Below, in pieces: positions 17,464 to 57,559 of a stretch of 64,000 nt of DNA. The stretch is from a virus. The stretch lies in the IMG/VR virus record IMGVR_UViG_3300027901_000001; one strand, given 5' to 3'. The position numbers were made by a program, and so were the translations under genes. The notes beneath the pieces were generated by a model that was not told the DNA's origin, ran no database searches, and saw only the letters and a program-made list of their open reading frames with translations. Within the stretch, counting starts at the first letter, position 1. Every line of letters starts with the position of its first letter.

Positions 17464-17491
17464 ATCTTATACGATAGCCAGCGTTGGTCAA
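17464..17491 (-). promoter_or_regulatory. sigma70-like promoter, leaderless
   Basis: TTGACC (17491-17486), 16 nt spacer, TAAGAT (17469-17464); GCTATC-N6-GATAGC inverted repeat over the -10. Confidence 0.6.
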
Positions 17492-18138
17492 GAGGTGGCC
17501 GCGTCCACCAATTTCCAGACCACCCCGATCATCTGGAGCAACGGCATCGCCATCAGCTTCTTCTGGTTCTCGGGCTTCAGCGCATCGTACACCTGAACCA
17601 CGTGGCTCGCAGTCCACAGGTCCACCATCTTGCCCTGAATCTTGCGCGCCGTCTTTTCCTTCACGATCTGGCGCATCTGGTCAATGACAGGCTTTTTCGC
17701 CCTACCCTCGTCCAGCTCTTCGGCCGCCCCGGTGAACAGCACGTCCAAGTCGACATTATCAGATTCTTGAGTGCCTCCTCCGGCCATAACGGAATACCGA
17801 TTACCCCGTCGGGAAATATACACCCCGATTCCTTTTCCAACGCCTCGGGAAACATCTCGCCTGTCTTGCAAATCCGATGGCCAAGCAACAGCAGGAGCCA
17901 AACCGTTTGCCTTCAGCACTCGATTTACCACCTGTACCACCTTCTTAAAGCTATCAAATTCGCGCATTTCATACTTACCAACTGTACGCCCCAAAAATGT
18001 CTGTTTCGGCTCACCGCCCCCAAAACCTGCCTTGCCGAAAGCCTTGTTCAATTTGGCTGTTTCAGCGGACTCTCCTTTCTCCTCCAACCCTCTGGCCTCG
18101 GAGCCCACCGCTTCCTGTAATGCGTTTGCAAATCCCAT
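17488..18138 (-). CDS. candidate internal head protein
   Basis: MGFANALQEA leader, LEE and LDE linkers. Confidence 0.6.
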   Translation of the reverse strand: MGFANALQEAVGSEARGLEEKGESAETAKLNKAFGKAGFGGGEPKQTFLGRTVGKYEMREFDSFKKVVQVVNRVLKANGLAPAVAWPSDLQDRRDVSRGVGKGIGVYISRRGNRYSVMAGGGTQESDNVDLDVLFTGAAEELDEGRAKKPVIDQMRQIVKEKTARKIQGKMVDLWTASHVVQVYDALKPENQKKLMAMPLLQMIGVVWKLVDAATS

Positions 18139-18153
18139 CCGTCGCTCCTTATC

Positions 18154-18792
18154 TCAAGGCACTTCCGATGCCGCCTCGCTGAACAGAGCGTTCAAATCGA
18201 CATCCGACGAATCGCTCTCATGTCGCCGGGAACCCGCGAAAAATCTGGTAACGCTTCCCTCCAAGGCAGCCTTCAATTGGGTCGCCTGAGAACGATTGAG
18301 AACACCGAGTGTAACCAGCTTCTTCACGTCCCACTTCTTCCACGCATTTTCGATATCGCTGGCCTTGTCCAGCATATCGTGGGCCTGATCCCGCAAATTG
18401 CGGACAGCAGAATCAATCAGAGAGGCAAAATATGCCGTTGATCCTTTGCCCCGTCCTGCCTCCTCCAAGCTACGGTTTCCCTCCCGTTCCCCGTCAGAGT
18501 CTTCACGTTTTCCGCGAGCCTTTCCGCTAAATGGCGGAGCATCGATCGGCATAACAATCGAACCCGGATTTTCGCGGGCTAACTGCGCGGCAGCGCTGGA
18601 GGTTTTTGCATAAAGGTAGTCGATTCGGTCACGAAGTTTGACCTCGACTTTGAAACGATACCCCTTCTCCTTCATCTTTTCGGCCTCGCGCTTGAACTCG
18701 GCCGCTGTCGAAGGAGTCTTCCCTTTCCCGGCTTCCTCCAGTCCCCCGGCCTCGAAGCCCACCGCTTCTGCCAGTGCGTTTGCCAGTCCCAT
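18154..18792 (-). CDS. candidate internal head protein
   Basis: MGLANALAEA leader, two LEE-AG linkers. Confidence 0.6.
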   Translation of the reverse strand: MGLANALAEAVGFEAGGLEEAGKGKTPSTAAEFKREAEKMKEKGYRFKVEVKLRDRIDYLYAKTSSAAAQLARENPGSIVMPIDAPPFSGKARGKREDSDGEREGNRSLEEAGRGKGSTAYFASLIDSAVRNLRDQAHDMLDKASDIENAWKKWDVKKLVTLGVLNRSQATQLKAALEGSVTRFFAGSRRHESDSSDVDLNALFSEAASEVP

Positions 18793-18795
18793 CGG

Positions 18796-19914
18796 TTACT
18801 CCTTTGCGCCAACCCTCCGCGCCTTGGACATCACGCTATAAATCACCTGGAGCACCTCGTAGATGCCCATTCCCTCCATGCGCTCCTGGTTGTCATCGTT
18901 CAGGCCGTCGTACATCTCGACCGCCACGTTCGCCGAAAACGGGTCTACCAACACGCCGTTGATCAGCTTCGGCTCACTGCTATCCGCCACGGCCCGCAGT
19001 TTCTCAATGGTATCGTCGCCTTCGGCCTCATCGGTCATCAGCTTCAGGCGATCGGCCGTGATACTCTCGCCAGCGATGTTGGGCAGCGCTGGATCGTGGC
19101 CAACAATCTGGATGGACGTAGCCATCTCGTAGTCGCCCGGCATCTTGCCGGTAACGAATGAAAACTGGCCGCTATGCGGGCTGTACTTGAGCACCGAGGT
19201 CCCGACCAGCGAGGTATGGCCCGTAGGGTTGCTGAGATTGCTCCGTGGAGCCACGTCGTGAGTATCTTGGGGAGTGGTCGCCCCGGACGGCACGGGGCTC
19301 TGTGGTGTCGGATAGCCCCCCGCAGGTCCGAAATCTCCGTACACCTGCTGACGAATGGCCTCGGGCTGAACCACGGCAGAATCGCCGGATTTGCCGATAA
19401 CACGGAACACGGTACCTCCCAGGTCGACGGCCATCCCCGGTTCGATCTTGCCCATCGCCGGAACGAAATCGCCGTAGCTCTGGAGGTCGGTAGAGCCCCC
19501 GAACGGGTCGGCCTGCTCACCCAGACTCTCGGTTGTGGTCCATTTCCCGCCGTAACTCGGCATTTCGCTCCGGTACCGGCCGCGACGACACACGTTCTCA
19601 ACGTGCTGGATCGATCGGTCGATAACTTCCCGCAGCTCCCGCAAGGCTGACAGCGGCGCGCCCTCGAATACCTCGAACACCTGTTTGCGGTCCTCACCGG
19701 TCTTCTTGCCCGCCCTGGTTGCATCCTGGTTGGCAATTCCGAATGCCGTCGACAGCGCATCCAGCTTCTTCTGAAGCAAGGTGGTGAGGTTGGTATGGGT
19801 CTTGAGCAGCTCCAGCGCCTCATCGACGGGCTCCTGGAGCTGCTCCGTCATCTGCTGGCCCGAAGGTTTCTTGCCCTCGTCCAGGATCGAACGGATTTCA
19901 TCTGAAAAAGCCAT
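18796..19914 (-). CDS. candidate internal head protein
   Basis: Start MAFSDEIRSILDEG after GGAGG; C-terminal domain homologous to that of 17488..18138. Confidence 0.6.
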   Translation of the reverse strand: MAFSDEIRSILDEGKKPSGQQMTEQLQEPVDEALELLKTHTNLTTLLQKKLDALSTAFGIANQDATRAGKKTGEDRKQVFEVFEGAPLSALRELREVIDRSIQHVENVCRRGRYRSEMPSYGGKWTTTESLGEQADPFGGSTDLQSYGDFVPAMGKIEPGMAVDLGGTVFRVIGKSGDSAVVQPEAIRQQVYGDFGPAGGYPTPQSPVPSGATTPQDTHDVAPRSNLSNPTGHTSLVGTSVLKYSPHSGQFSFVTGKMPGDYEMATSIQIVGHDPALPNIAGESITADRLKLMTDEAEGDDTIEKLRAVADSSEPKLINGVLVDPFSANVAVEMYDGLNDDNQERMEGMGIYEVLQVIYSVMSKARRVGAKE

Positions 19915-19931
19915 GACTCCTCCGTATGCTG

Positions 19932-22900
19932 TTAGGCGACCGCCTCCAGCCAGCCTTTGCCCTGAGAATACACCCCGTCGCCGATGATGGCGATATCTTC
20001 GTCCTCCCACATCTGCTCGAAATCGGGGTCCGAAGCCCACGGCAGCACGACGATATGCAAGCCATGTTCAACGCCCTCCTGCATCTTCATCAGCCGCCGG
20101 GTCACCTCATTCATGCGCCGCGTTACGCTGGCGATCATCTTGAAAAGCCCAACTGAAACCTGGTCCCGGAAGTCCAAATAGACCTGCACATAAGCCGACA
20201 ACCGATCCGTGAGCTTGTCGCCCGTGATGACCGACTTCTGGTTCAGCAGCTTCTCACCCTCCCGGATAGCGACCGACCCCAGCTCCGCGCTCTCCCGGAT
20301 CACGGAATTCATCCTGGCTGTAACCTGGAGCACCTCGCGCACCAGATTCGTAGCGGTGATCTCCCTGGTAGGCACAGACGGCCCCTTACGCTTCCCGGCG
20401 CGCCGGGTTGAGATTCTGGCCATCTTGGCCAGCCGCGTCATGGCGTTGCGGCCCTCTGCGAACGGCCCGTACAGCTTCTTGGTCTCCGCCTCGAAAGACC
20501 GAGCAGCGTTGCCCAGGGGCGACCGCTGCATGGCGCGCTCGACCCCCGCCGTCCGCCGGATCCGCTCGGTCTCCTGGGCCGCGTGCGCCAGCTCTTCGGC
20601 CACCTCCTCCAGGTGGTAGACGGACCGGACGAACTTCCTGGTCTGGTCCACCGATCGCTCCAGCTCGCGCCGCAACTCCTGGTTGTCACTCCGCAGCTCA
20701 CCCACGGCCGCAGTGGCCGGAGCACGCTCGGACAGCTCTCCCTCGGTGACGCCGTACCTCTTCAGCAGGTCGCCGATCTTCTTCCCGGTGGACTTCCTCT
20801 GGGACAGATCCAGAACCGTGCGCGCCCGGCCCTGGTAGTTGCTGATATCGACATCCCTGGCCAGGGCTGCCTCGCCCAGTCCCAGCAGCAGCGCCGCGAC
20901 CACGGCCGCCTTCCCGGCCTTACTGAGCACGCCCTCGTCCAGCCCCTCCAGCTCCTCCAGCACGGCCTCCAGATCGGCATCGGTGCAGGACAGCACCGAC
21001 AAGTCGAACCAGTCCTCCTCGATCGGCCCTTCCATCAAAGCCAGGTGCAGATCGTTGGCCATCGACGCCGCGAGCTTCATCCCCTTGCTGTCGTGCTGTT
21101 TCAGGAACTTGACGATGTGCTTGCCCACCGCGTCGACGGACCCCTTCATGGGCTTGAAGCCGATGTCCTTCTGGTTGCTGTAGTGGACGGTGACCTTCAC
21201 GTCGCCATCGGCGTCGCCGTCCTTCTTGAAGGGCGCGACCTTGAACTTCACCTGCTTCGGACAGTTGACGATCTCGCCGGTCTTGGAACCCTTCGGCACG
21301 TCCGAGTACTCGATGATGACCTGCGGCGTGATGTACTGCGGCCCGAACCGGCAGAAAAAGTGCTTTTTCTTGAGCTGGGGCAGCCCCTTGGTCACCGTCT
21401 GGCACAGCTCCAGGGCGTCGCTCCAGCGGGCCTCGATCAGCTCGATGCCCTCCGTCTTCTTGGGAGGCTCTAGTTTACCGGTATAGAAGTCGGCGTCCCA
21501 TCCATCGGTGTAGAGTTTCTTCAGCTTCTCGGCCTTCGTTTTACTCATAATGTAACCGCGTTCGCGGTTCGTCCACTTACCCTTGAGAGCATCCGCGAGT
21601 CGAGCTGCCCGCGTCTTGTAACCGGTAGCAGAAGGGGCTCTCACGAGCATCTTATTCTTGGCATACCTAGCGGGAGAAATCTGGGGAGGTGCCTCTTCAG
21701 CTCTCTCCCAGAACAACTCGGCCAACTCAATACCTTCGGCCAGCTTGTAGGACGCCGTGCGGCTCACCCGCTTGCGGCCGGGCGCGGCCTGCACCAGCTC
21801 CAGCGTGCCCTTCTTGACGAGCTTCTTGAAGAAGCCGGTCACTACCTGGGGGCTGAGCCCGAACGCATACCCCAGGTCCAGCACGGATATCGTGCGGCCC
21901 GGCTTCTCCTTCATAAACGCTACCAGCTCGGCCTCGGTCGGCAGCTTTCCCTTCTCCGCCTCGTCCAGCTCGGCCGCTTCTACGGCCAACACGAAGTCCC
22001 CATATCCGTGCTTGACTACCTTGCCGGACCTGTCGGCGTAACCGATATGCGTGAGCTTCCCATCCCGTCGCAGCTTGTGAATGAATTGCTGGGCCACGTG
22101 CCTGAAATGGTCCTCATCGGCCCCTCTTCCGAACGTAGGCTTGAACTTCTTGTAGTACTGATCCCTGACCACCATATAGATGGCGTGCTTGAGATCCCCT
22201 TCCGTCCACTGCTTCTTCTTTTTGACCACCCTCGTAATAGGAGCAATGGAGAAGTCCTTGATGGTCGGCTCGACAGGAGCATCATCTCCCGTCTGACGCC
22301 CTTCTTCTAGCTCGACCTCCTCACGCACCAGCTCGGACCGGCCCTTCTTCTCCATGTTCTTAATCAGCTCCTTGACGAGCTTGCCTTCCTTGTTGTCGTA
22401 CACCTGGTGCGACCGACCGCTCTGGCCCTTGAACTTCTTGCCGCGCATCCGATCAAACTCGATGCTCTTGCCGTTGCCTTCCAGAGAAAACTCGCCGAAG
22501 CCCATGTGCTTGAGCTTCATGCCCGGCATGGCATCGCCGATCGAATTCAGGAAGGCGGTGTCGGCGTGGTAACTCTTGCCGTCGTAGTAGTGCTTGCCCT
22601 TCTCGGTGAGCAGCTCCTCCTCGATGGCCTCCTCGAACAGATTGTCCAGGCCCATGAGGTCCTCTTCCTTCTTCCGGGGCTTCAGCTTCGCCGCGTACAG
22701 CTTCTCCAGCACGGGCATCACTTTCTCCCGGAAGTACCGACCGGGATTGGCCCGCGCCCGCTTCATCTCGTCACGCGGAATCCCGGCCCCGCGAAAGGCC
22801 ACCTTCGCCACCTTCAGAACCTTCTTGGCCCAGGTCCGGGTCATCTGGAATCGGCGCATCAGATCGGACTCGCTGACGTTGCCTTCCTTGCTGGACACGA

Positions 22901-23474
22901 AATCGGAGATGGCGATGATGTCGGCCGGGAGCGAGATGGACTCTTCCAGCTCAGCCTCAAACAGATCGTTGAGGTCCTCCGACTCGAAATAGACGGGCTT
23001 GTGCTGCAACCCCTTCCTCTTGAACCGAGGATCGTGCTCGATGTTGAGCGGCGCAACGGCATGGGGCTCGTCCCTGTCGCTCCACAAAACCTTCGGCCAC
23101 ATCTTGCCGCCCCCCATCTTCACGAAGCCTACTACCTTCCCGTTGATCGGACCTCCGGCCTGCATCCCGATGTTCCGCAGAAACTTCCCGGTGTACCGAA
23201 CAATATCCCCTTTCTTGAACTCCTTACCGGACCGGCTGCCTTCCTCCAGCGCCCCCGCGAGCTGCCCGGCCAAGCCTTCCTTCTGGTACTTTTTCTTCAG
23301 CTCGGGCTCCTTGTCGTTCGTGGTGCTACCGGTCGACTTGTAGTGCGGCTTCGCACCCTTTTTATACATGTCCCAGGCCAGAGCAAAAGCCTTCTCGGTT
23401 GGCATGTGCCTCTTCATGGCCTTCACGGTCCCGGACCAGCCGGGCGGCGCTTTTTCGGTCAACGGTATGGTCAT
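19932..23474 (-). CDS. 1180-aa modular protein (basic/wHTH-like modules joined by L-x-E linkers)
   Basis: ATGA-coupled start at 23474; about ten acidic linkers; winged-helix-like module at about 21745-21950. Confidence 0.7.
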   Translation of the reverse strand: MTIPLTEKAPPGWSGTVKAMKRHMPTEKAFALAWDMYKKGAKPHYKSTGSTTNDKEPELKKKYQKEGLAGQLAGALEEGSRSGKEFKKGDIVRYTGKFLRNIGMQAGGPINGKVVGFVKMGGGKMWPKVLWSDRDEPHAVAPLNIEHDPRFKRKGLQHKPVYFESEDLNDLFEAELEESISLPADIIAISDFVSSKEGNVSESDLMRRFQMTRTWAKKVLKVAKVAFRGAGIPRDEMKRARANPGRYFREKVMPVLEKLYAAKLKPRKKEEDLMGLDNLFEEAIEEELLTEKGKHYYDGKSYHADTAFLNSIGDAMPGMKLKHMGFGEFSLEGNGKSIEFDRMRGKKFKGQSGRSHQVYDNKEGKLVKELIKNMEKKGRSELVREEVELEEGRQTGDDAPVEPTIKDFSIAPITRVVKKKKQWTEGDLKHAIYMVVRDQYYKKFKPTFGRGADEDHFRHVAQQFIHKLRRDGKLTHIGYADRSGKVVKHGYGDFVLAVEAAELDEAEKGKLPTEAELVAFMKEKPGRTISVLDLGYAFGLSPQVVTGFFKKLVKKGTLELVQAAPGRKRVSRTASYKLAEGIELAELFWERAEEAPPQISPARYAKNKMLVRAPSATGYKTRAARLADALKGKWTNRERGYIMSKTKAEKLKKLYTDGWDADFYTGKLEPPKKTEGIELIEARWSDALELCQTVTKGLPQLKKKHFFCRFGPQYITPQVIIEYSDVPKGSKTGEIVNCPKQVKFKVAPFKKDGDADGDVKVTVHYSNQKDIGFKPMKGSVDAVGKHIVKFLKQHDSKGMKLAASMANDLHLALMEGPIEEDWFDLSVLSCTDADLEAVLEELEGLDEGVLSKAGKAAVVAALLLGLGEAALARDVDISNYQGRARTVLDLSQRKSTGKKIGDLLKRYGVTEGELSERAPATAAVGELRSDNQELRRELERSVDQTRKFVRSVYHLEEVAEELAHAAQETERIRRTAGVERAMQRSPLGNAARSFEAETKKLYGPFAEGRNAMTRLAKMARISTRRAGKRKGPSVPTREITATNLVREVLQVTARMNSVIRESAELGSVAIREGEKLLNQKSVITGDKLTDRLSAYVQVYLDFRDQVSVGLFKMIASVTRRMNEVTRRLMKMQEGVEHGLHIVVLPWASDPDFEQMWEDEDIAIIGDGVYSQGKGWLEAVA

Positions 23475-24412: not shown

Positions 24413-24781
24413 TCACTTCTCCGCGAGCTTTTTCCCGTAGTTGGCCAGAACGTCCTTCACCGTACCAACCACGGAGGCGTACCCGATCATCGCGCCGATG
24501 CCCGCGCCTACATAGAAAATTACCGACCCCATCATCCCCTCGGTCGTCAGGGCCTCCGTTACCGGCATTCCGGGAATCAGCCCGATGAGCGCGCCCATCA
24601 CCAGCGAGTGGTTCTTGCAGGTAACCCGATATACGCCCTTCCAGCCCTTGAAACCCTCCTTGGGCCATTTGTCTTTCGGTCCCAGGATGAGCTTCTTACC
24701 AGTCTCGTGAACTGAACCAATTACGAGCAAGGCCACCCAAAAAGCCGGGTGAGTAAAATACGCAACTAGACCATCGAGCAT
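24413..24781 (-). CDS. multi-pass membrane protein (holin-like)
   Basis: About three hydrophobic segments, basic C-terminus; ATG at 24781. Confidence 0.55.
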   Translation of the reverse strand: MLDGLVAYFTHPAFWVALLVIGSVHETGKKLILGPKDKWPKEGFKGWKGVYRVTCKNHSLVMGALIGLIPGMPVTEALTTEGMMGSVIFYVGAGIGAMIGYASVVGTVKDVLANYGKKLAEK

Positions 24782-24794
24782 GGCTTCACTCCTT

Positions 24795-25046
24795 TCACTT
24801 TTCCGGATCAAACTGCCCCCACTCCTGCGGGGGATAGATGTAAAACCGCTGTCCAAGAATCTCCTTCTTCTTGGCGGCCAGCCTCTTTTTGGCCTCCTCT
24901 TCAGTCGGAAAATTCCCCACCAGATACAGCTCCTCACCCGGATCGTTATGTTCATCGACGCCGACCACGTTGTAGCCCTTGCCCGGCATCGGGGTCAGGC
25001 GCTTCTGAGCCTTGAGTGCCTGGAGCGGATCGGCCATCCCCCACAT
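24795..25046 (-). CDS. hypothetical protein
   Basis: ORF track; directly downstream of the RelA/SpoT fusion. Confidence 0.65.
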   Translation of the reverse strand: MWGMADPLQALKAQKRLTPMPGKGYNVVGVDEHNDPGEELYLVGNFPTEEEAKKRLAAKKKEILGQRFYIYPPQEWGQFDPEK

Positions 25047-25050
25047 CCTA

Positions 25051-27087
25051 TCAAGTTATGCACCCGAAGTAACGACTCACCACTCTCGGACAAGGGGGCG
25101 CAGCACCCACTTCTTCCCCCTTATCCTGGGAATAAAAGTAGTCCGACACCCTAGCAGCGTAATCGATAATCCTGTTTTTGTGCCTCTCCAGAGCCCGAAC
25201 CTGCTCCCGAGTATAGGGCTTGTACTGATCGTGGGACCAATCGGCCGCCATATCCTGGCGGCGCGTGCGGATTTGGAGTTCCTTCACCTCACCGTCCTTG
25301 TCCACGATGTCCAGGTGGATGCTCCGATACTTCACCGCGCCCTGGGGATTACGCACCTTGTCATCAATGTTCTTGATCCTTATACCGTATCGCGCCCCCT
25401 TCCCTTTGATACTCTCAATAATATCATACACTTCTCCGATGGAACCGGCGATGATCCTGGTTCCGGTCACATCTCCCAGGGCACTCGCTGCCTTGTATTT
25501 GACGTTCTTTGCATCTGGCGGGGCGATCTTACCCAACATGCTATCGAGGTCCTTCAGCCGACCCGTTACCTTGTACCGGGGACCCGCCAGTCTTCCCAGG
25601 TCCCTCATAAATCCCTGCTGCCGCTTGGCGTGCTTGGCCCTCATCTCCTTCGCAGCCCGGATATGGTCACCAACGCCCAACGGCGCAATCAATCCCTGCT
25701 GCACATACCGCGCCATCCTCCGAATGGTACTAGCCAGCTCCTTCCTCTTCTTTGCCTGGGCCTCAGCATCTTCCACAACATCTTGAGCAAAGGTTCCCTT
25801 CACCTTCCGCCATTTACTCGGATCGGCGATTTTAACATGCACCCCCGTCTTGCGTTTACGCCGGGTGCCAATATCGTACTTGATTTCCTGCAAAATCCTG
25901 TCCAGCGGCGACAGCTCCCGTGACGCTCGAATACCCTTGGCCTCCGGCCATCTGGCCGCCAGCTTGCCCACGGTCACCTGGAGCCGAGCGGCCACATCCG
26001 AATCCAGGCGCTGCCCCAACAATTGCCCCGCGAAGGCCCGAGAAAAGCCCTCCTGCCCCTTTCCATTCCCCCAGGTCTCCCTGTCCCCCTTACCGAACTC
26101 CTGAAGCCACAGGCGTTCTGCGAGCGCCCTGAGCACGTTTTCGATGTTGGCCGAACCGGACCGCTGGGCATCGAAAATGAACAGGTCCGCCGTCGGGTCA
26201 TACTGAACAAAAGCAGTGCCTTTTACCTTGGCCGGATTCAGCTCCACCAGGCCGCCCGCCGCCGTCAACAGCCCCACACCGGTGAGCACCTTCGAGGCCC
26301 CCTCCAGCGCTCGCGTTACGTCCCGGACCTCGGAGCTGGTGTATCCCCACGTGTTCACGACCTCAAATCCAGCAGCCTTGAAAAATGGGTCTGCTTTACC
26401 CAAACCCTTAGCTGCCACCTTCCGAGCATCCCGAAGACCCCCGGCCAGCGCCCGCAACGCGGCCGACGCCTTCCTCGCCCCGGTGGGAGAGGTCCAAACA
26501 TTATGGGCAAGCCGCTTCAAAGTGGACCGGAGCTTACTCACCTCCGGCCGCTCACCCTCCAGGGCATCGGCGACGGGCTCTGCAAGCGCAGCCATCTGTT
26601 TGAGCTTCCAGGAAGCAGCCCCGGTAACCGACACCGCCACGGCCGTCTGCTCGATCTCCTTGGCGATAGCCTTGAGATAGGAGTCAGTCAGCGGGTCACT
26701 GCTGATCTTCGGAACGGCCTCTGTCAGATGCTCTTTCACCGTCACCGATCGTACCACCACCTGCGGGCCGGTCGGAGCATTTGTCGCCCTGGGCGGATCG
26801 TACCTCTTGAGCACCTTCACCGGCCACGCCCACAGCTCCCGGTCCTTTGGCCACCACTGCTGGCGCTGCTCATCGCTGATACGGTGCTCGCCCCGGCGAC
26901 GCTCAAACTGCTTAACGGTGAGCTTTTCCTGCTTGCCCAGCCGGACTGTACCGTACGCCTTCCGGCTACTGAGCAGCACGAACTCCTTGCCCGCGACATC
27001 AAAAGGCTTACTTTTGACGATGAGCTTCTTTTCGCCGTCGCGCACCATCTCCGCCATCGCGGTCGGCGAAAGGATGAGCCCCTCCAC
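25051..27087 (-). CDS. ASCH-like / degenerate zincin / RelA-SpoT synthetase-domain fusion
   Basis: GRLKDLDSMLGK, DVTGTRII, YRSIH and ELQIRT synthetase motifs; N-terminal ASCH pattern. Confidence 0.85.
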   Translation of the reverse strand: MEGLILSPTAMAEMVRDGEKKLIVKSKPFDVAGKEFVLLSSRKAYGTVRLGKQEKLTVKQFERRRGEHRISDEQRQQWWPKDRELWAWPVKVLKRYDPPRATNAPTGPQVVVRSVTVKEHLTEAVPKISSDPLTDSYLKAIAKEIEQTAVAVSVTGAASWKLKQMAALAEPVADALEGERPEVSKLRSTLKRLAHNVWTSPTGARKASAALRALAGGLRDARKVAAKGLGKADPFFKAAGFEVVNTWGYTSSEVRDVTRALEGASKVLTGVGLLTAAGGLVELNPAKVKGTAFVQYDPTADLFIFDAQRSGSANIENVLRALAERLWLQEFGKGDRETWGNGKGQEGFSRAFAGQLLGQRLDSDVAARLQVTVGKLAARWPEAKGIRASRELSPLDRILQEIKYDIGTRRKRKTGVHVKIADPSKWRKVKGTFAQDVVEDAEAQAKKRKELASTIRRMARYVQQGLIAPLGVGDHIRAAKEMRAKHAKRQQGFMRDLGRLAGPRYKVTGRLKDLDSMLGKIAPPDAKNVKYKAASALGDVTGTRIIAGSIGEVYDIIESIKGKGARYGIRIKNIDDKVRNPQGAVKYRSIHLDIVDKDGEVKELQIRTRRQDMAADWSHDQYKPYTREQVRALERHKNRIIDYAARVSDYFYSQDKGEEVGAAPPCPRVVSRYFGCIT

Positions 27088-27090
27088 GCC

Positions 27091-27417
27091 TCACCTCAGA
27101 TTGGCGGCAAGAAAGGCAGCGATATCCCGGCGCGCCCCTTTCGGATCAGTCTCCCCCTTTTTTTCGATGGACTCGATCACCTTCTTCTGCGCATCCGCTG
27201 TGGCCCGCACCTTGGCCTTCTCGATCTCTCCTTCCAGATGCACACGCTCGATCTTGTCCCGCGCCCGCTCTGTAAAGGTCGGCGGCTTCAGCGGTCCCTC
27301 CGTAGGCTCCGGACCCCCTTTCGGCCCCAGCAGCTTCCACAGGATGGTAATGGCGAACCCGACACCGAGCGCGAACGCCCACCACCAGCGCCGAATAAAC
27401 CGCTTGACCTTTTTCAT
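27091..27417 (-). CDS. membrane-anchored protein
   Basis: Basic N-terminus, WWWAFALGVGFAITILW TM helix, coiled coil. Confidence 0.7.
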   Translation of the reverse strand: MKKVKRFIRRWWWAFALGVGFAITILWKLLGPKGGPEPTEGPLKPPTFTERARDKIERVHLEGEIEKAKVRATADAQKKVIESIEKKGETDPKGARRDIAAFLAANLR

Positions 27418-27594
27418 CTAGCCCTCGGTTAGATATTGGCGGCGGTCCGGCGTGGGCATGTCATCGGTCAGCATCTTGCGGCCCTGCTGGTCCTTGATCT
27501 CCGTGTGACCGCAGTTCTGACAAGTGATCTTCACCCTGCCCTCATCCAGGCCCTCGGTGAGGACCTTCTCAGAACCACATCGTGAACACTTCAT
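27418..27594 (-). CDS. 58-aa zinc-ribbon protein
   Basis: Not in ORF track; MKCSRCG...CQNCG...YLTEG; stop abuts the next ATG. Confidence 0.7.
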   Translation of the reverse strand: MKCSRCGSEKVLTEGLDEGRVKITCQNCGHTEIKDQQGRKMLTDDMPTPDRRQYLTEG

Positions 27595-29474: not shown

Positions 29475-30317
29475 CTACAGCCCAAGCGGTCCAGCTATGG
29501 CACCGCCGATATCCTCCAGGATGCCGCCGTCCTCAGAATCCCCAGAAACCGCCAATGGATTCACAACTTCGCCCGCCAGCGTCATATCCGCACGATTGTG
29601 AAAGGCCACTTTACCCTCACTCTGCACCGTCTCAGCAAATTCCAGGGATATCTCCACGATACGCGGCCGACCGCTGGGGAACCACGCCTCGTAGGTGACA
29701 TCGCAGGTGGTCATCACACACACGATGTCGTGCTCGTCGATCTTGTGCCCCAGGTTCGTGCCGGGCAGCACCAGGATGCACTTCGGAGGCTCGAACACCC
29801 GCAGATCGTCCTGGATGTAGTACGGGTAGGTGAAATATCGCAGCCAATGAATCGCCGCCTCGATAGGCACATTCCTCATCGGATCCGCTTCCGGACCGCC
29901 CAGGCCAACAAAGCTGGCTGCCGATTCGACCGCGCTCACCACGGCTCCAATAGCCCCACCGATGCCCCCGGCCTTCTCCCTCGGGGGAGGCTCATGGTCG
30001 CGAGTAAAAACGGCCGTAAAGCTCAGCCGCCGCTCGCCGCCGTGGGTCCACTGATAGATGGGATGCGAGCCACCGGGAATGTTGCGGGGATTCCATTCCG
30101 ACGGGCGGCTATCGGTCAAGGACTCCGGCCAGTACTGAAACGCTATTCCGGCATCCTTGGCAGGCTCGGCCCCGACCGACAAACCGCTACCCTGTCCTAC
30201 CCACGGAGGCACCTCATCCTCAGCCAGATCAATGGCTTTCAGATAAGCCTGAGCCAGCTTCGGGTGATGCGTGCTCCCCGTAAGCTGAGTAATTATTCCT
30301 GTAGGCAGCGCGGGCAT
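29475..30317 (-). CDS. CIS-tube-like / tail tube initiator protein
   Basis: FQYWPESLTDSRPSEWNPRNIPGGSHPIYQWTHGGERRLSFTAVF. Confidence 0.75.
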   Translation of the reverse strand: MPALPTGIITQLTGSTHHPKLAQAYLKAIDLAEDEVPPWVGQGSGLSVGAEPAKDAGIAFQYWPESLTDSRPSEWNPRNIPGGSHPIYQWTHGGERRLSFTAVFTRDHEPPPREKAGGIGGAIGAVVSAVESAASFVGLGGPEADPMRNVPIEAAIHWLRYFTYPYYIQDDLRVFEPPKCILVLPGTNLGHKIDEHDIVCVMTTCDVTYEAWFPSGRPRIVEISLEFAETVQSEGKVAFHNRADMTLAGEVVNPLAVSGDSEDGGILEDIGGAIAGPLGL

Positions 30318-40426: not shown

Positions 40427-41353
40427 TTAGTTGTTCCCGTGTCTATACTTCGCACCATAACGTTTCCTTATCAGATGCAGATATTTGGCATCGTTGGAAC
40501 AGTCGTTGACCAGAATATCCAGCCCATTACGCACAACGTACTCGATAATATCTACCGTGATAAACCTACTTTCGGTAGGACTGACCAGCCACGACTTGTA
40601 GACATAAGCCTCCTTTCCTACAACGTATCCTTCGGTTCCCTGGTGATGAATCATCAACTCGGCCAGGTTGAGCTGCGCCACCCCGCAATCTATAAGGATT
40701 TGCAGTTTCCCATCGTCCAACAGCCTCTTTCTAACCTGTGGAATAGACGGAATTTCAACGGTAACCTTGCCAATAATGTCCTTCACCAGAATGAGTTTCT
40801 CTAATACCTCATCACTGAAATCCGTGGCAGCCAGGTTGACCCGCAGCTCATCAAGCCCGGCGTCTTTGAGCTTCGCCAAGATATCCGAATCGACCAGCTT
40901 ACCATTAGTATAGGCCCAGAGATAAATAGCGGGAGCCGTTTTAGAGAAAAGAGTCAATATGGAAATAACCTTGTCTCGCTCCAGCAGAAACTCTCCTCCA
41001 GAAAAAGACACCCCCGTAATTTTCGGATTCTCAGCCATGATGTCCGACACGACCTGGACGGCGGATCGCGTATTAATATAAAGGTGCTCGTCATGGTCTT
41101 TTTTCGGGGGCTTTCTTGCACAGAAATCACAAGTTAGATTGCACCATCCTGTAGTAGGCAGGCAAATCCAGGTACCGGCCTTGCAAGCCCGACACCCTTC
41201 TGACAGTCCGTGACTTGAATTTGTATATATAGTGCGCCCTTCATCCTCGACACAGAGACCGCCATTTAGCAGAGCATACCTGTTACGGATTTGCTCCACG
41301 AACGTATCGCCATCAACGATATCCTGTGTGCCCATTCTATCCAACACCTGCAT
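40427..41353 (-). CDS. radical SAM protein (COG2108-like)
   Basis: GCRAC, then CNLTCDFC (CxxxCxxC), SFSGGE, YTNG, GLDELR; ATG at 41353 after GGAG. Confidence 0.9.
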   Translation of the reverse strand: MQVLDRMGTQDIVDGDTFVEQIRNRYALLNGGLCVEDEGRTIYTNSSHGLSEGCRACKAGTWICLPTTGWCNLTCDFCARKPPKKDHDEHLYINTRSAVQVVSDIMAENPKITGVSFSGGEFLLERDKVISILTLFSKTAPAIYLWAYTNGKLVDSDILAKLKDAGLDELRVNLAATDFSDEVLEKLILVKDIIGKVTVEIPSIPQVRKRLLDDGKLQILIDCGVAQLNLAELMIHHQGTEGYVVGKEAYVYKSWLVSPTESRFITVDIIEYVVRNGLDILVNDCSNDAKYLHLIRKRYGAKYRHGNN

Positions 41354-41366
41354 CACAAATCGGCTC

Positions 41367-41801
41367 CTATGGTGGCGGTGCACCAGGTACTTCCACTATC
41401 TCACCCTTCTCGATCGTAACAATGGCATCCGAACCAATCATCTCCGCCACCCGGCCAATCGGCACAATAAAGTAACCCCCAATCTGGTGGGGCGCGTTAC
41501 GGTAAGAACCAGCGCTACTATAGTTCAAATAGATATAATCACCGGCTGCCCAACTAGAGCCATATTGATAGGAGCTGGGAATAATAACGGGACCAGCGTA
41601 TGCGAAAAAACCATGATCAGGTTGAGCAACATCCGCTATAGCTGTTCCCCAATATTGTGCTTCAGCAAAAGATGTAACCCTCGCTATCTTCACATTTCTG
41701 TTGCTTGAAAAAACATATACCGGCTGCCCTCGATAAATCGTGGTGGCATCGGCATTATTCATATACCTTATTGGCAAAACTTGATTGGCAGGAACGTGCA
41801 T
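41367..41801 (-). CDS. virion fibre/cement-like beta protein
   Basis: IYRGQPVY...G.AIADVA...YIYL...G pattern. Confidence 0.55.
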   Translation of the reverse strand: MHVPANQVLPIRYMNNADATTIYRGQPVYVFSSNRNVKIARVTSFAEAQYWGTAIADVAQPDHGFFAYAGPVIIPSSYQYGSSWAAGDYIYLNYSSAGSYRNAPHQIGGYFIVPIGRVAEMIGSDAIVTIEKGEIVEVPGAPPP

Positions 41802-56986: not shown

Positions 56987-57559
56987 CTACCTTTCACCCG
57001 GAAGAATCATCCCGTCCAGCGGCGGTAAAAGATCTCCCAGGGTGGTATCTGCGCCTCTCCCCAGCTCCAGGGGCGAAGGCAAATTCCGAACTCTGTTCAC
57101 GAACTCGCGGAGCGTCATCTCCTGTTCCGCCATTTCATCCGCGATGAGGTTGTAGAGACTGGGCCACTTCTCGACCATCACCAGGATCTCCCCGGCCCGG
57201 TCCAGGTAGCTGTAATTGCGCTCGGCCGACCGGGTTCCACTGTCCCGCATCACACGTCCGAATCCGGCCTGGGGCATCATCTCCTTCAACTCGATACCGT
57301 TTTGGACCAGTTTTTCGGCATAGGCCGGGCCAAAGTGGGCCACGGCATTTTCCCGAATCCAGTTGCTCCAGCGCGGCTGATCCATCGACTCATGGCCCAC
57401 CACGACCAGAGGCAGCACTCCGTGAGCATCGCGGCCCGGATAGTTGTCGTGCCGCAGCCGCATCAGCTTGACGATGAACCCCATCTCGTCCAACGGCTCC
57501 GATCGAACCGCCATCGGCTCATCATATATGGCCTCTTCAAGCTGTTTTGCGATTCCCAT
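56987..57559 (-). CDS. hypothetical protein with MGIAKQLEEA leader
   Basis: N-terminus resembles the leaders at 18138 and 18792. Confidence 0.65.
   Translation of the reverse strand: MGIAKQLEEAIYDEPMAVRSEPLDEMGFIVKLMRLRHDNYPGRDAHGVLPLVVVGHESMDQPRWSNWIRENAVAHFGPAYAEKLVQNGIELKEMMPQAGFGRVMRDSGTRSAERNYSYLDRAGEILVMVEKWPSLYNLIADEMAEQEMTLREFVNRVRNLPSPLELGRGADTTLGDLLPPLDGMILPGER

Follow-up and report, generated by a model that had tools for sequence, protein, structure and literature searches.

A RelA/SpoT-type synthetase on a conserved zincin-like carrier, with a candidate inhibitor gene, in a T4-like phage lineage

We analysed a 64,000-nucleotide (nt) stretch of viral DNA (the window) that corresponds to the reverse strand of bases 98-64097 of the complete 191,623-bp virus record IMGVR_UViG_3300027901_000001, which has a 94-bp terminal overlap. 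Window genes run right to left across a myovirus tail and baseplate module (tape measure, hub, wedge) and include, on the minus strand, a single uninterrupted 678-amino-acid (aa) open reading frame (ORF), here called the effector, that opens with GTG and closes with a stop codon at 25051-25053. Coding-type GC periodicity extends over its full length, the first 108 codons included (GC content at third codon positions, GC3, of 0.81), and a 678-aa protein of identical sequence, encoded on a 191,670-bp contig, is present in a public protein database. From N- to C-terminus the effector comprises a basic N-terminal segment, a carrier of about 260 residues, a flexible adapter and a RelA/SpoT-type synthetase; an 83-aa ORF, dn83, follows it (Table 1). 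A first-pass annotation had read the protein as an N-terminal ASCH domain joined by an HLTE-A linker to a synthetase. The synthetase and the linker (junction at residues 120-124) stood, but that layout missed the carrier and the exchange of C-terminal domains (warheads) behind it, which are the main organising features of the locus.

Pfam RelA_SpoT (PF04607) matched residues 509-623 (E-value 5.7e-13, 49.6 bits, cut-off 27), and a six-frame search of the genome recovered the domain at 53.6 bits as a single copy. The complete synthetase (Syn) motifs lie where they had been placed at first pass: R510-x-K512-x3-S516-x3-K520 at nt 25528-25560, D539-x-x-G542-x-R544 at nt 25456-25473, Y587-R-S-I-H591 at nt 25315-25329 and E603-L-Q-I-R-T608 at nt 25264-25281. 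Overall identity among the five synthetase-bearing orthologues is 43-61%, and all five Syn motifs are invariant, including R510, K512, K520, D539, R544, Y587, H591, E603, Q605 and R607; we take these positions to correspond, in RelSeq numbering, to the catalytic Asp/Glu and the ATP-binding Arg/Lys residues. In an AlphaFold2 full-length model built with 51 family sequences, the predicted local distance difference test (pLDDT) score of the synthetase was mostly 85-97. The modelled domain superposed on RelP with Z 14.9 and a root-mean-square deviation of 2.5 Å over 166 residues, followed by RelQ (Z 13.6), CapRel (13.1), an exported synthetase (12.4) and Tas1 (10.3, the weakest synthetase match). 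Searched against solved structures, a profile of the five orthologues likewise ranked RelP and RelQ first (55-40 bits), then long Rel/RelA enzymes, with the toxic small alarmone synthetase (toxSAS) CapRel at 24.7 bits. We assign the effector to the RelA/SpoT synthetase superfamily, as a member with a small-alarmone-synthetase-type domain. In agreement with the first pass, family-model searches found no HD hydrolase domain in the effector, and PF13328 (HD_4) gave zero matches across the complete 191.6-kb genome. The synthetase looks catalytically competent and without a hydrolase partner.

Taken alone, the synthetase domain had no near relatives of 108-347 aa, one weak match among GenBank phages and no match in a scan of GTDB genomes; the PADLOC candidate defence family PDC-S33 matched it at E 4e-11. 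Its C-terminal tail (pLDDT 88-96) contains two cysteines, C666 and C676, that are invariant in all five orthologues, for which a metal site, a disulfide and docking are candidate roles. The fragment spanning residues 402-678 is strongly basic in all orthologues, with a net charge of +15 to +32.

Guanosine- and adenosine-specific enzymes of this fold differ in signatures within the Syn motifs, namely SxH versus GxN, AVR versus RYT and IR versus YH, and swapping these residues does not convert specificity (PMC12226406); signature type is thus a correlation and not proof. The effector carries S-I-H in Syn3, G-T-R in Syn2 and I-R in Syn4. By this comparison Syn3 and Syn4 are of the guanosine type, and Syn2 resembles that type more than it does RYT. 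A (p)ppApp synthetase, a possibility raised at first pass, was rejected as first choice since the three signatures are not the GxN, RYT and YH of Apk-type enzymes; Tas1 was also the most distant synthetase in the structural comparison.

The carrier (residues 124-383) was modelled with pLDDT >90 as a four-helix bundle (126-231) followed by an alpha/beta domain (232-383). Matches to the bundle were generic and non-specific (Z ~10). Residues 232-382, by contrast, matched several zincin peptidase structures with Z 7.6-9.8, among them 4l7a, a putative zinc metallopeptidase of Bacteroides caccae; the structure search also returned models of a phage 'putative peptidase' and of M34 and IrrE-like proteins, and Foldseek matches included ART-PolyVal and DdrB-like giant phage proteins. 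When 1.84 billion representative sequences were searched exhaustively by profile, 68 relatives emerged; about 40 clusters among them are stand-alone proteins of 241-268 aa, and a few are longer. A weaker tier of relatives, 305-463 aa in length (one of 889 aa), belongs to Pfam Peptidase_Mx1/Mx, and every protein in it has the motif HE[LF][GA]H, whereas HExxH occurs in none of the 51 core members. In the window carrier, R-A-L-A-E occupies the columns aligned to H-E-x-x-H. Because fold and profile match zincins and this replacement is present, carrier part 2 is, by alignment and model, a zincin stripped of its zinc ligands and catalytic Glu. A role of the central module as an active peptidase was rejected, HExxH being lost in all 51 core members. 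In related phages the carrier is usually a stand-alone protein of ~250 aa at a conserved locus. Searching IMG/VR with the carrier profile added no loci.

The locus is syntenic in every relative with recovered DNA (related loci are designated L001 to L009): upstream of the carrier gene stand a gene for a 58-aa zinc-ribbon protein and one for a protein of ~106 aa. What follows the carrier varies. Carrier, adapter and RelA/SpoT domain occur together in the window, L001, L002, L008 and L009. L005 (1593-3256) has a frameshifted RelA-type copy: the frame changes within the synthetase, whose distal half overlaps the 439-aa gene at its end. The shift could be programmed, or it could reflect decay of the gene or an error in sequencing. 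In L003 the carrier and adapter are joined instead to a Zeta_toxin/AAA_33 kinase (P0006, 699 aa; L003:10001-12100). The Walker A motif of this kinase is intact, its match to the XopAJ/AvrRxo1 zeta-toxin subfamily is weak, and the protein has an extra C-terminal tail of ~130 aa. L004 has the carrier only, and the next conserved gene comes directly after it. The remaining loci, on short contigs, are uninformative on the state after the carrier. The point of exchange lies near residue 432, in a flexible stretch, and the adapter (384-440) is found only in warhead-bearing members. RelA/SpoT domains and zeta-toxin kinases are both effector domains of phage polyvalent proteins and MuF fusions (PMC5512222), and a zincin-like peptidase is the commonest hub domain in polyvalent proteins (Iyer et al. 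2017, PMC5512222). The architecture had not been recognised at first pass, and it is indeed rare: the synthetase is carried by only five relatives among ~15 billion proteins, and the N-terminal extension by none. Comparison of the loci also marks the membrane-protein site just after the effector as a second variable spot, where an opposite-strand predicted membrane protein of 138/140 aa (L003:12097-12513 and L009:3484-3906) stands in for a same-strand membrane protein of ~122 aa (window 24413-24781).

The small ORF dn83 tracks the synthetase. In the window it starts after a 4-nt gap downstream of the effector stop codon, and in L002 and L008 the start of its orthologue overlaps that stop codon by 4 nt. 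Orthologues are 67-87 aa long and 48-68% identical in alignment, with an invariant Y71 and conserved aromatic residues at the C-terminus. One lies directly 3' of each of the five RelA-type genes and of neither gene of another type (Zeta-type L003, carrier-only L004), a perfect co-variation that bears out the earlier choice of this ORF as the only antitoxin candidate. L003 and L009 have a common downstream backbone (the opposite-strand 138/140-aa membrane protein, then an 86-aa gene) and differ in warhead and dn83; because of this, warhead and dn83 behave as one cassette. Adjacent inhibitors or immunity genes are known for toxSAS and Apk toxins, and some are compact proteins that plug the substrate site (PMC11782079, PMC12226406, PMC12691689). 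Searches of Pfam, PHROG and PADLOC placed dn83 in no known family, and a language-model search for look-alikes gave scores of at most 0.80, which is chance level. This distribution, with an orthologue behind every RelA-type gene and none at the Zeta-type or carrier-only locus, suggests that dn83 probably encodes the cognate inhibitor, or immunity protein, of the synthetase.

That the nearest sequences and structures are those of housekeeping RelP and RelQ, that the Syn signatures are of the guanosine type (PMC12226406) and that the genome has no hydrolase would also suit a regulatory, non-toxic (p)ppGpp synthetase, produced in the course of infection, that tunes host metabolism in a housekeeping-like manner, with dn83 an unrelated or merely regulatory neighbour. 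We regard this as distinctly unlikely. It leaves unexplained the strict cassette behaviour of dn83, the interchange with a Zeta-toxin/AvrRxo1-like kinase and the strong basic charge, and (p)ppGpp-only exported synthetases can be highly toxic (PMC12691689).

How a protein of this kind might reach a host is suggested by the head genes. The genome encodes a T4-type head module with a portal, a gp21-like protease and a gp23-like capsid protein. The protease domain (PF03420 at 65.6 bits, above cut-off) resides in a 559-aa ORF outside the window (genome 179743-181422). The same ORF has a long acidic C-terminal part that may be a fused scaffold or propeptide, since it is rich in [LI]-x-E sites. In T4, gp21 cuts after L/I-X-E, and short N-terminal propeptides target the internal proteins and Alt to the capsid, from which they are ejected into the host (PMC9026906, PMC7411985). 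A strict leader pattern, M-x(2-6)-[QAEI]-L-x-E-[AGSK], was met in 10 genome ORFs against a mean of 0.54 and a maximum of 3 in shuffles, a statistic that is biased because the pattern was chosen after the leaders had been seen. A typical leader reads MSxSxQLQE↓A (the arrow marks the predicted cut), with a form of ~9 aa, M-[SG]-x-x-x-Q-L-[QSA]-E↓A, and in-window starts at 57559, 18792 and 18138 on the minus strand. The same motif recurs in the gp23-like capsid protein (genome 181475-183007): numbered from the first ATG, RYQLQE↓D lies at residues 56-60, about where the T4 gp23 propeptide is cut. The leader family looks like T4-style capsid-targeting propeptides and suggests that many proteins of this phage are capsid-internal; four downstream neighbours of dn83 have L-x-E leaders of their own. 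For the ~1180-aa neighbour the count of L-x-E sites is about what composition predicts and hence uninformative, and weight was given to the position and conservation of sites instead.

The effector family shows similar signals. The N-termini of its nearest relatives read MDGITE↓A, MDAVAE↓A, VLGMTE↓A, …SLTE↓A and …PMTE↓A, giving the pattern [LIMV]-[TA]-E↓A, and a short N-terminal leader ending in L/I-x-E is present in orthologues P0002, P0003, P0004, P0007 and P0009. Within low-confidence linkers the only conserved [LIVM]-x-E sites are LTE↓A (121-123) and I-L-Q-E↓I (398-402), and these bracket the carrier. The T4-type head and protease, the leader family, the leaders of neighbouring genes, the bracketing sites and the basic fragment together make it plausible that the effector is an Alt-like, capsid-packaged and protease-trimmed protein, a reading to which we give about an even chance. 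For virion delivery, proposed at first pass, the support is of this circumstantial kind, and packaging itself is inferred.

We also considered that effector and dn83 form a non-packaged, intracellular toxin-antitoxin-like pair that excludes competing phages, times host shut-off or acts in an addiction-like way, their structural-gene neighbourhood being incidental. The adjacency and co-variation of dn83 match type II toxSAS modules (PMC7229694; PMC11782079), and the PDC-S33 match to the synthetase, the good structural match to CapRel and a carrier that resembles no known virion protein point in the same direction. Nevertheless, this arrangement seems rather unlikely to us. The warhead is fused to a carrier at a conserved locus amid genes with capsid-type leaders, in the profile comparison RelP/RelQ score above the toxSAS CapRel, and delivered polymorphic effectors typically show the kind of exchange seen here, with a Zeta kinase in the same position (PMC5512222). 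Moreover, the phage genome has no tyrosine integrase and the phage looks virulent, which makes a prophage-style defence role unlikely.

The N-terminal segment stands apart from the rest of the protein. Pfam and NCBIfam found nothing on residues 1-115, even at E <= 10; PF04266, which the same search found in control genomes, had no match in this genome at E <= 10; and BLASTP of E. coli YqfB did not match the segment. No homologues were recovered by tblastn against 50,697 phage records, by a word-indexed protein search or by an IMG/VR scan, and AlphaFold2 modelled it with pLDDT 37 (single-sequence, residues 1-115) and below 50 in the full-length model. The ASCH call made at first pass has weak support, from two observations. 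A language-model search with residues 1-115 placed it among viral ~120-aa clusters in which 16-40% of members have ASCH (score 0.95, 190/256 shared features, 21/30 hits; about 1/100 shuffles reach that score), and a full-length, co-linear and non-significant alignment (E 0.8) was obtained to Thermus TTHA0113, an ASCH protein. Half of the ASCH motif GxKxxExR (PMC6803910) is kept in that weak alignment, as G18-E-K20-K-L-I-V-K25, with the Glu lost and the Arg replaced by Lys. The predicted order of strands and helices is compatible with a PUA-like beta-barrel fold. An ASCH-like fold is, in our estimation, somewhat more likely than not for this segment, whose isoelectric point is 10.1.

The segment is unique to the window phage: in the other family members any N-terminal extension is at most 23 residues long. 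The insertion ends exactly at the start of orthologue P0003, at the homologous 'VVRSVSV', and its GC3 of 0.81 exceeds that of the rest of the gene (0.64-0.74), which would fit recent acquisition from another source. Since the segment is only putatively ASCH and every relative works without it, RNA recognition by ASCH, proposed at first pass, is not supported as the core of the mechanism. The segment may be removed or released separately, lying as it does upstream of the likely protease site LTE↓A. It could even be no functional part at all: an inserted small gene that lost its stop, or a long propeptide, with the working protein starting at about residue 110-124 through internal initiation at GTG codons or LTE↓A cleavage. 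This possibility, which is compatible with our preferred explanation, we hold to be a serious one if somewhat short of even. Its absence from all relatives, the end of the insertion at the ancestral start, the GC3 shift and the LTE↓A site immediately after it all agree with such an origin, but no stop codon separates the two parts, coding periodicity is continuous, the internal GTGs have no clear ribosome-binding site upstream and the public gene call covers the full 678 aa.

Our best explanation, which we judge evenly balanced between right and wrong, is a modular phage effector, consisting of a lineage-specific N-terminal segment, a dead-zincin carrier, a flexible adapter and a RelA/SpoT warhead in cassette with dn83, that is packaged and ejected. 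The domain anatomy, intact motifs, dead zincin, exchange of warheads, co-occurrence within the cassette, T4-type protease and leader family are observed; inhibition by dn83, packaging, cleavage, substrate and host effect are predictions in what follows. The effector would be made late, and the dn83 protein would bind the synthetase and keep it inactive. Targeted into the T4-type prohead, the effector would be trimmed by the gp21-like prohead protease at LTE↓A (residue 123) and LQE↓I (residue 401), which would free a basic synthetase fragment of ~277 aa. This fragment would enter the next host with the DNA and without the inhibitor, and there move pyrophosphate from ATP to a 3'-OH. The acceptor would most likely be GDP/GTP, giving (p)ppGpp, with tRNA 3' ends as the alternative, and either reaction would be expected to halt or redirect transcription and translation in the host. 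A broader and more doubtful proposal is that a virulent T4-like lineage (~160-190 kb) possesses an undescribed polymorphic ejection-protein system, in which the dead zincin would serve as capsid-targeting carrier for alarmone-type or Zeta warheads, a dedicated small immunity protein would silence the warhead in the producer cell, and cuts at L-x-E by the prohead protease, not by the zincin, would here release an ASCH-like RNA-binding module as well as the basic synthetase.

Several points weigh against this explanation, beyond the bias of the strict-leader statistic. A loose leader pattern was only ~2.8 standard deviations above shuffles. The leader of the effector family is looser than the QLQE consensus and is absent in more distant members, and in the window copy 120 extra residues precede the leader-like motif, which is thus internal. 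Targeting sequences of T4 are N-terminal, although propeptides of 111-130 residues occur in giant phages (PMC7411985). Three other conserved [LIVM]-x-E sites sit inside helices, which makes the L-x-E motif weak by itself. Pfam, PHROG and structure searches returned no known virion protein significantly similar to the carrier, and neither an antitoxin family nor an antitoxin fold was recognised for dn83. The co-occurrence of dn83 with the synthetase concerns seven loci of one phage lineage, which are not independent events. Syn signatures do not fix specificity experimentally (PMC12226406). Finally, packaging, cleavage, toxicity and binding are all predictions.

The working principle resembles systems already described, in MuF-Apk2 toxins with immunity, small polyvalent proteins and T4 Alt; what is new is the combination, in a phage that appears virulent, of T4-type processing signals with a dead-zincin carrier whose warhead can be exchanged and with an orphan candidate for immunity. 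MuF-Apk2 with IapK/Aph1 immunity (PMC5576092, PMC12226406), like the effector, pairs a conserved phage N-terminal carrier with a variable C-terminal toxin; its carrier is tied to the head, a RelA/SpoT-type pyrophosphokinase is one toxin option, and one or more immunity genes follow immediately downstream. Phages also encode fusions of Zeta-toxin kinases to MuF domains (PMC5512222). A variable C-terminal toxin and a downstream gene are likewise found at the effector locus, with dn83 as the putative immunity gene. The effector carrier differs in having no Phage_Mu_F match in Pfam or PHROG and consists instead of a helical bundle and a dead zincin; its structural matches to head-morphogenesis proteins were all insignificant (E >0.1). 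MuF-Apk2 phages are temperate, whereas the effector phage appears virulent, is T4-like and has a genome of 191 kb. In place of the GxN/RYT/YH of Apk2 the effector has guanosine-type Syn signatures, with one 83-aa candidate immunity gene and no hydrolase.

The polyvalent proteins of phages and conjugative elements (PMC5512222) similarly join a zincin-like metallopeptidase domain to a RelA/SpoT domain or zeta-toxin kinase and are predicted to act early in invasion. The effector is much smaller, with 3-4 modules, and a small ORF accompanies its warhead; its zincin, having lost HExxH, cannot process the protein itself, so that any cleavage would be left to the prohead protease of T4 type. T4 Alt, IPI-III and the ejection proteins of giant phages (PMC9026906, PMC7411985) offer a parallel in the T4-type head, gp21-like protease and L/I-x-E↓ leaders, and Alt in being a basic protein and an enzyme that, as predicted for the effector, would modify the host on arrival. 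The effector has no sequence relationship to these proteins; it is a pyrophosphokinase by homology and Alt an ADP-ribosyltransferase, and the immunity-like partner of the effector has no counterpart described for Alt in the T4 reviews consulted. With RelP/RelQ and the toxSAS enzymes (FaRel, FaRel2, PhRel, PhRel2, CapRel; Tas1/Apk1) the effector shares the catalytic fold and the five Syn motifs, and with toxSAS an adjacent small partner gene. Unlike them, it holds its synthetase behind a 440-residue non-catalytic N-terminal region, and profile scores favour RelP/RelQ over CapRel, the only toxSAS subfamily compared by profile.

To our knowledge, phage-borne RelA/SpoT toxins have so far come mainly from temperate phages (MuF-Apk2) and giant polyvalent proteins, with delivery largely inferred. 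The present locus is a compact and tractable case, with a defined carrier, a natural allele set, a candidate 83-aa inhibitor and explicit predicted cleavage sites. If our explanation holds, the scheme known from polymorphic toxins (carrier, warhead, immunity) would extend to the ejection proteins of lytic phages, a dead protease would have been reused as a packaging scaffold, and an alarmone synthetase of the guanosine type, not the (p)ppApp type, would join the injected phage weapons.

Table 1. Features of the effector locus and its neighbours in window coordinates; arrows mark candidate cleavage positions
Feature	Coordinates	Strand	Basis
Whole effector ORF, 678 aa	25051..27087	-	ORF, codon-position GC, identical database protein
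N-terminal segment, residues 1-108, ASCH-like (putative), basic	26764..27087	-	language-model neighbours, weak TTHA0113 alignment
L-T-E↓A junction, residues 121-124, candidate prohead-protease site	26716..26727	-	equals end of the orthologues' short leader
Carrier part 1, residues 126-231, four-helix bundle	26395..26712	-	AlphaFold2 pLDDT >95; generic bundle matches
Carrier part 2, residues 232-383, zincin-like, HExxH lost	25939..26394	-	profile relatives and structure matches
Adapter, residues 384-440: flexible linker, beta-hairpin, I-L-Q-E↓I	25768..25938	-	alignment, model
I-L-Q-E↓I site, residues 398-402, conserved	25882-25893	-	alignment
RelA/SpoT-type synthetase, residues 441-660, small-alarmone-synthetase fold	25108..25767	-	Pfam, profile, fold
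Pfam RelA_SpoT core, residues 509-623	25219-25563	-	Pfam
C-terminal tail, P-P-C-P-x-V-V-x-x-x-F-G-C-[IL]-T	25054..25098	-	orthologue alignment, model
dn83, 83-aa ORF, candidate immunity protein/antitoxin	24795..25046	-	co-occurrence with synthetase
Upstream pair marking the syntenic locus	27091..27594	-	orthologues 5' of the carrier gene in L001-L007
58-aa zinc-ribbon protein	27418-27594	-	upstream pair member
108-aa protein with N-terminal hydrophobic helix	27091-27417	-	upstream pair member; ~106 aa in relatives
Four downstream neighbours with L-x-E↓ leaders, candidate capsid-internal proteins	17488..23474	-	leaders kept in L001, L002
~1180-aa downstream neighbour, leader MTIPLTE↓K	in 17488..23474	-	
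372-aa downstream neighbour, leader MAFSDEIRSILDE↓G	in 17488..23474	-	
212-aa downstream neighbour, leader MGLANALAE↓A	in 17488..23474	-	
216-aa downstream neighbour, leader MGFANALQE↓A	in 17488..23474	-	

Promoter and terminator scans gave matches no more frequent than in shuffles. Elsewhere in the window, a 280-aa protein at 29475-30317 has a sub-threshold match to a contractile-injection-system tube family (E 1.6e-4); its gene follows fibre-like genes, away from the main tail module, and is conserved in L001-L003. A radical SAM protein (Pfam E 1.9e-12) is encoded at 40427-41383, amid baseplate and fibre genes.

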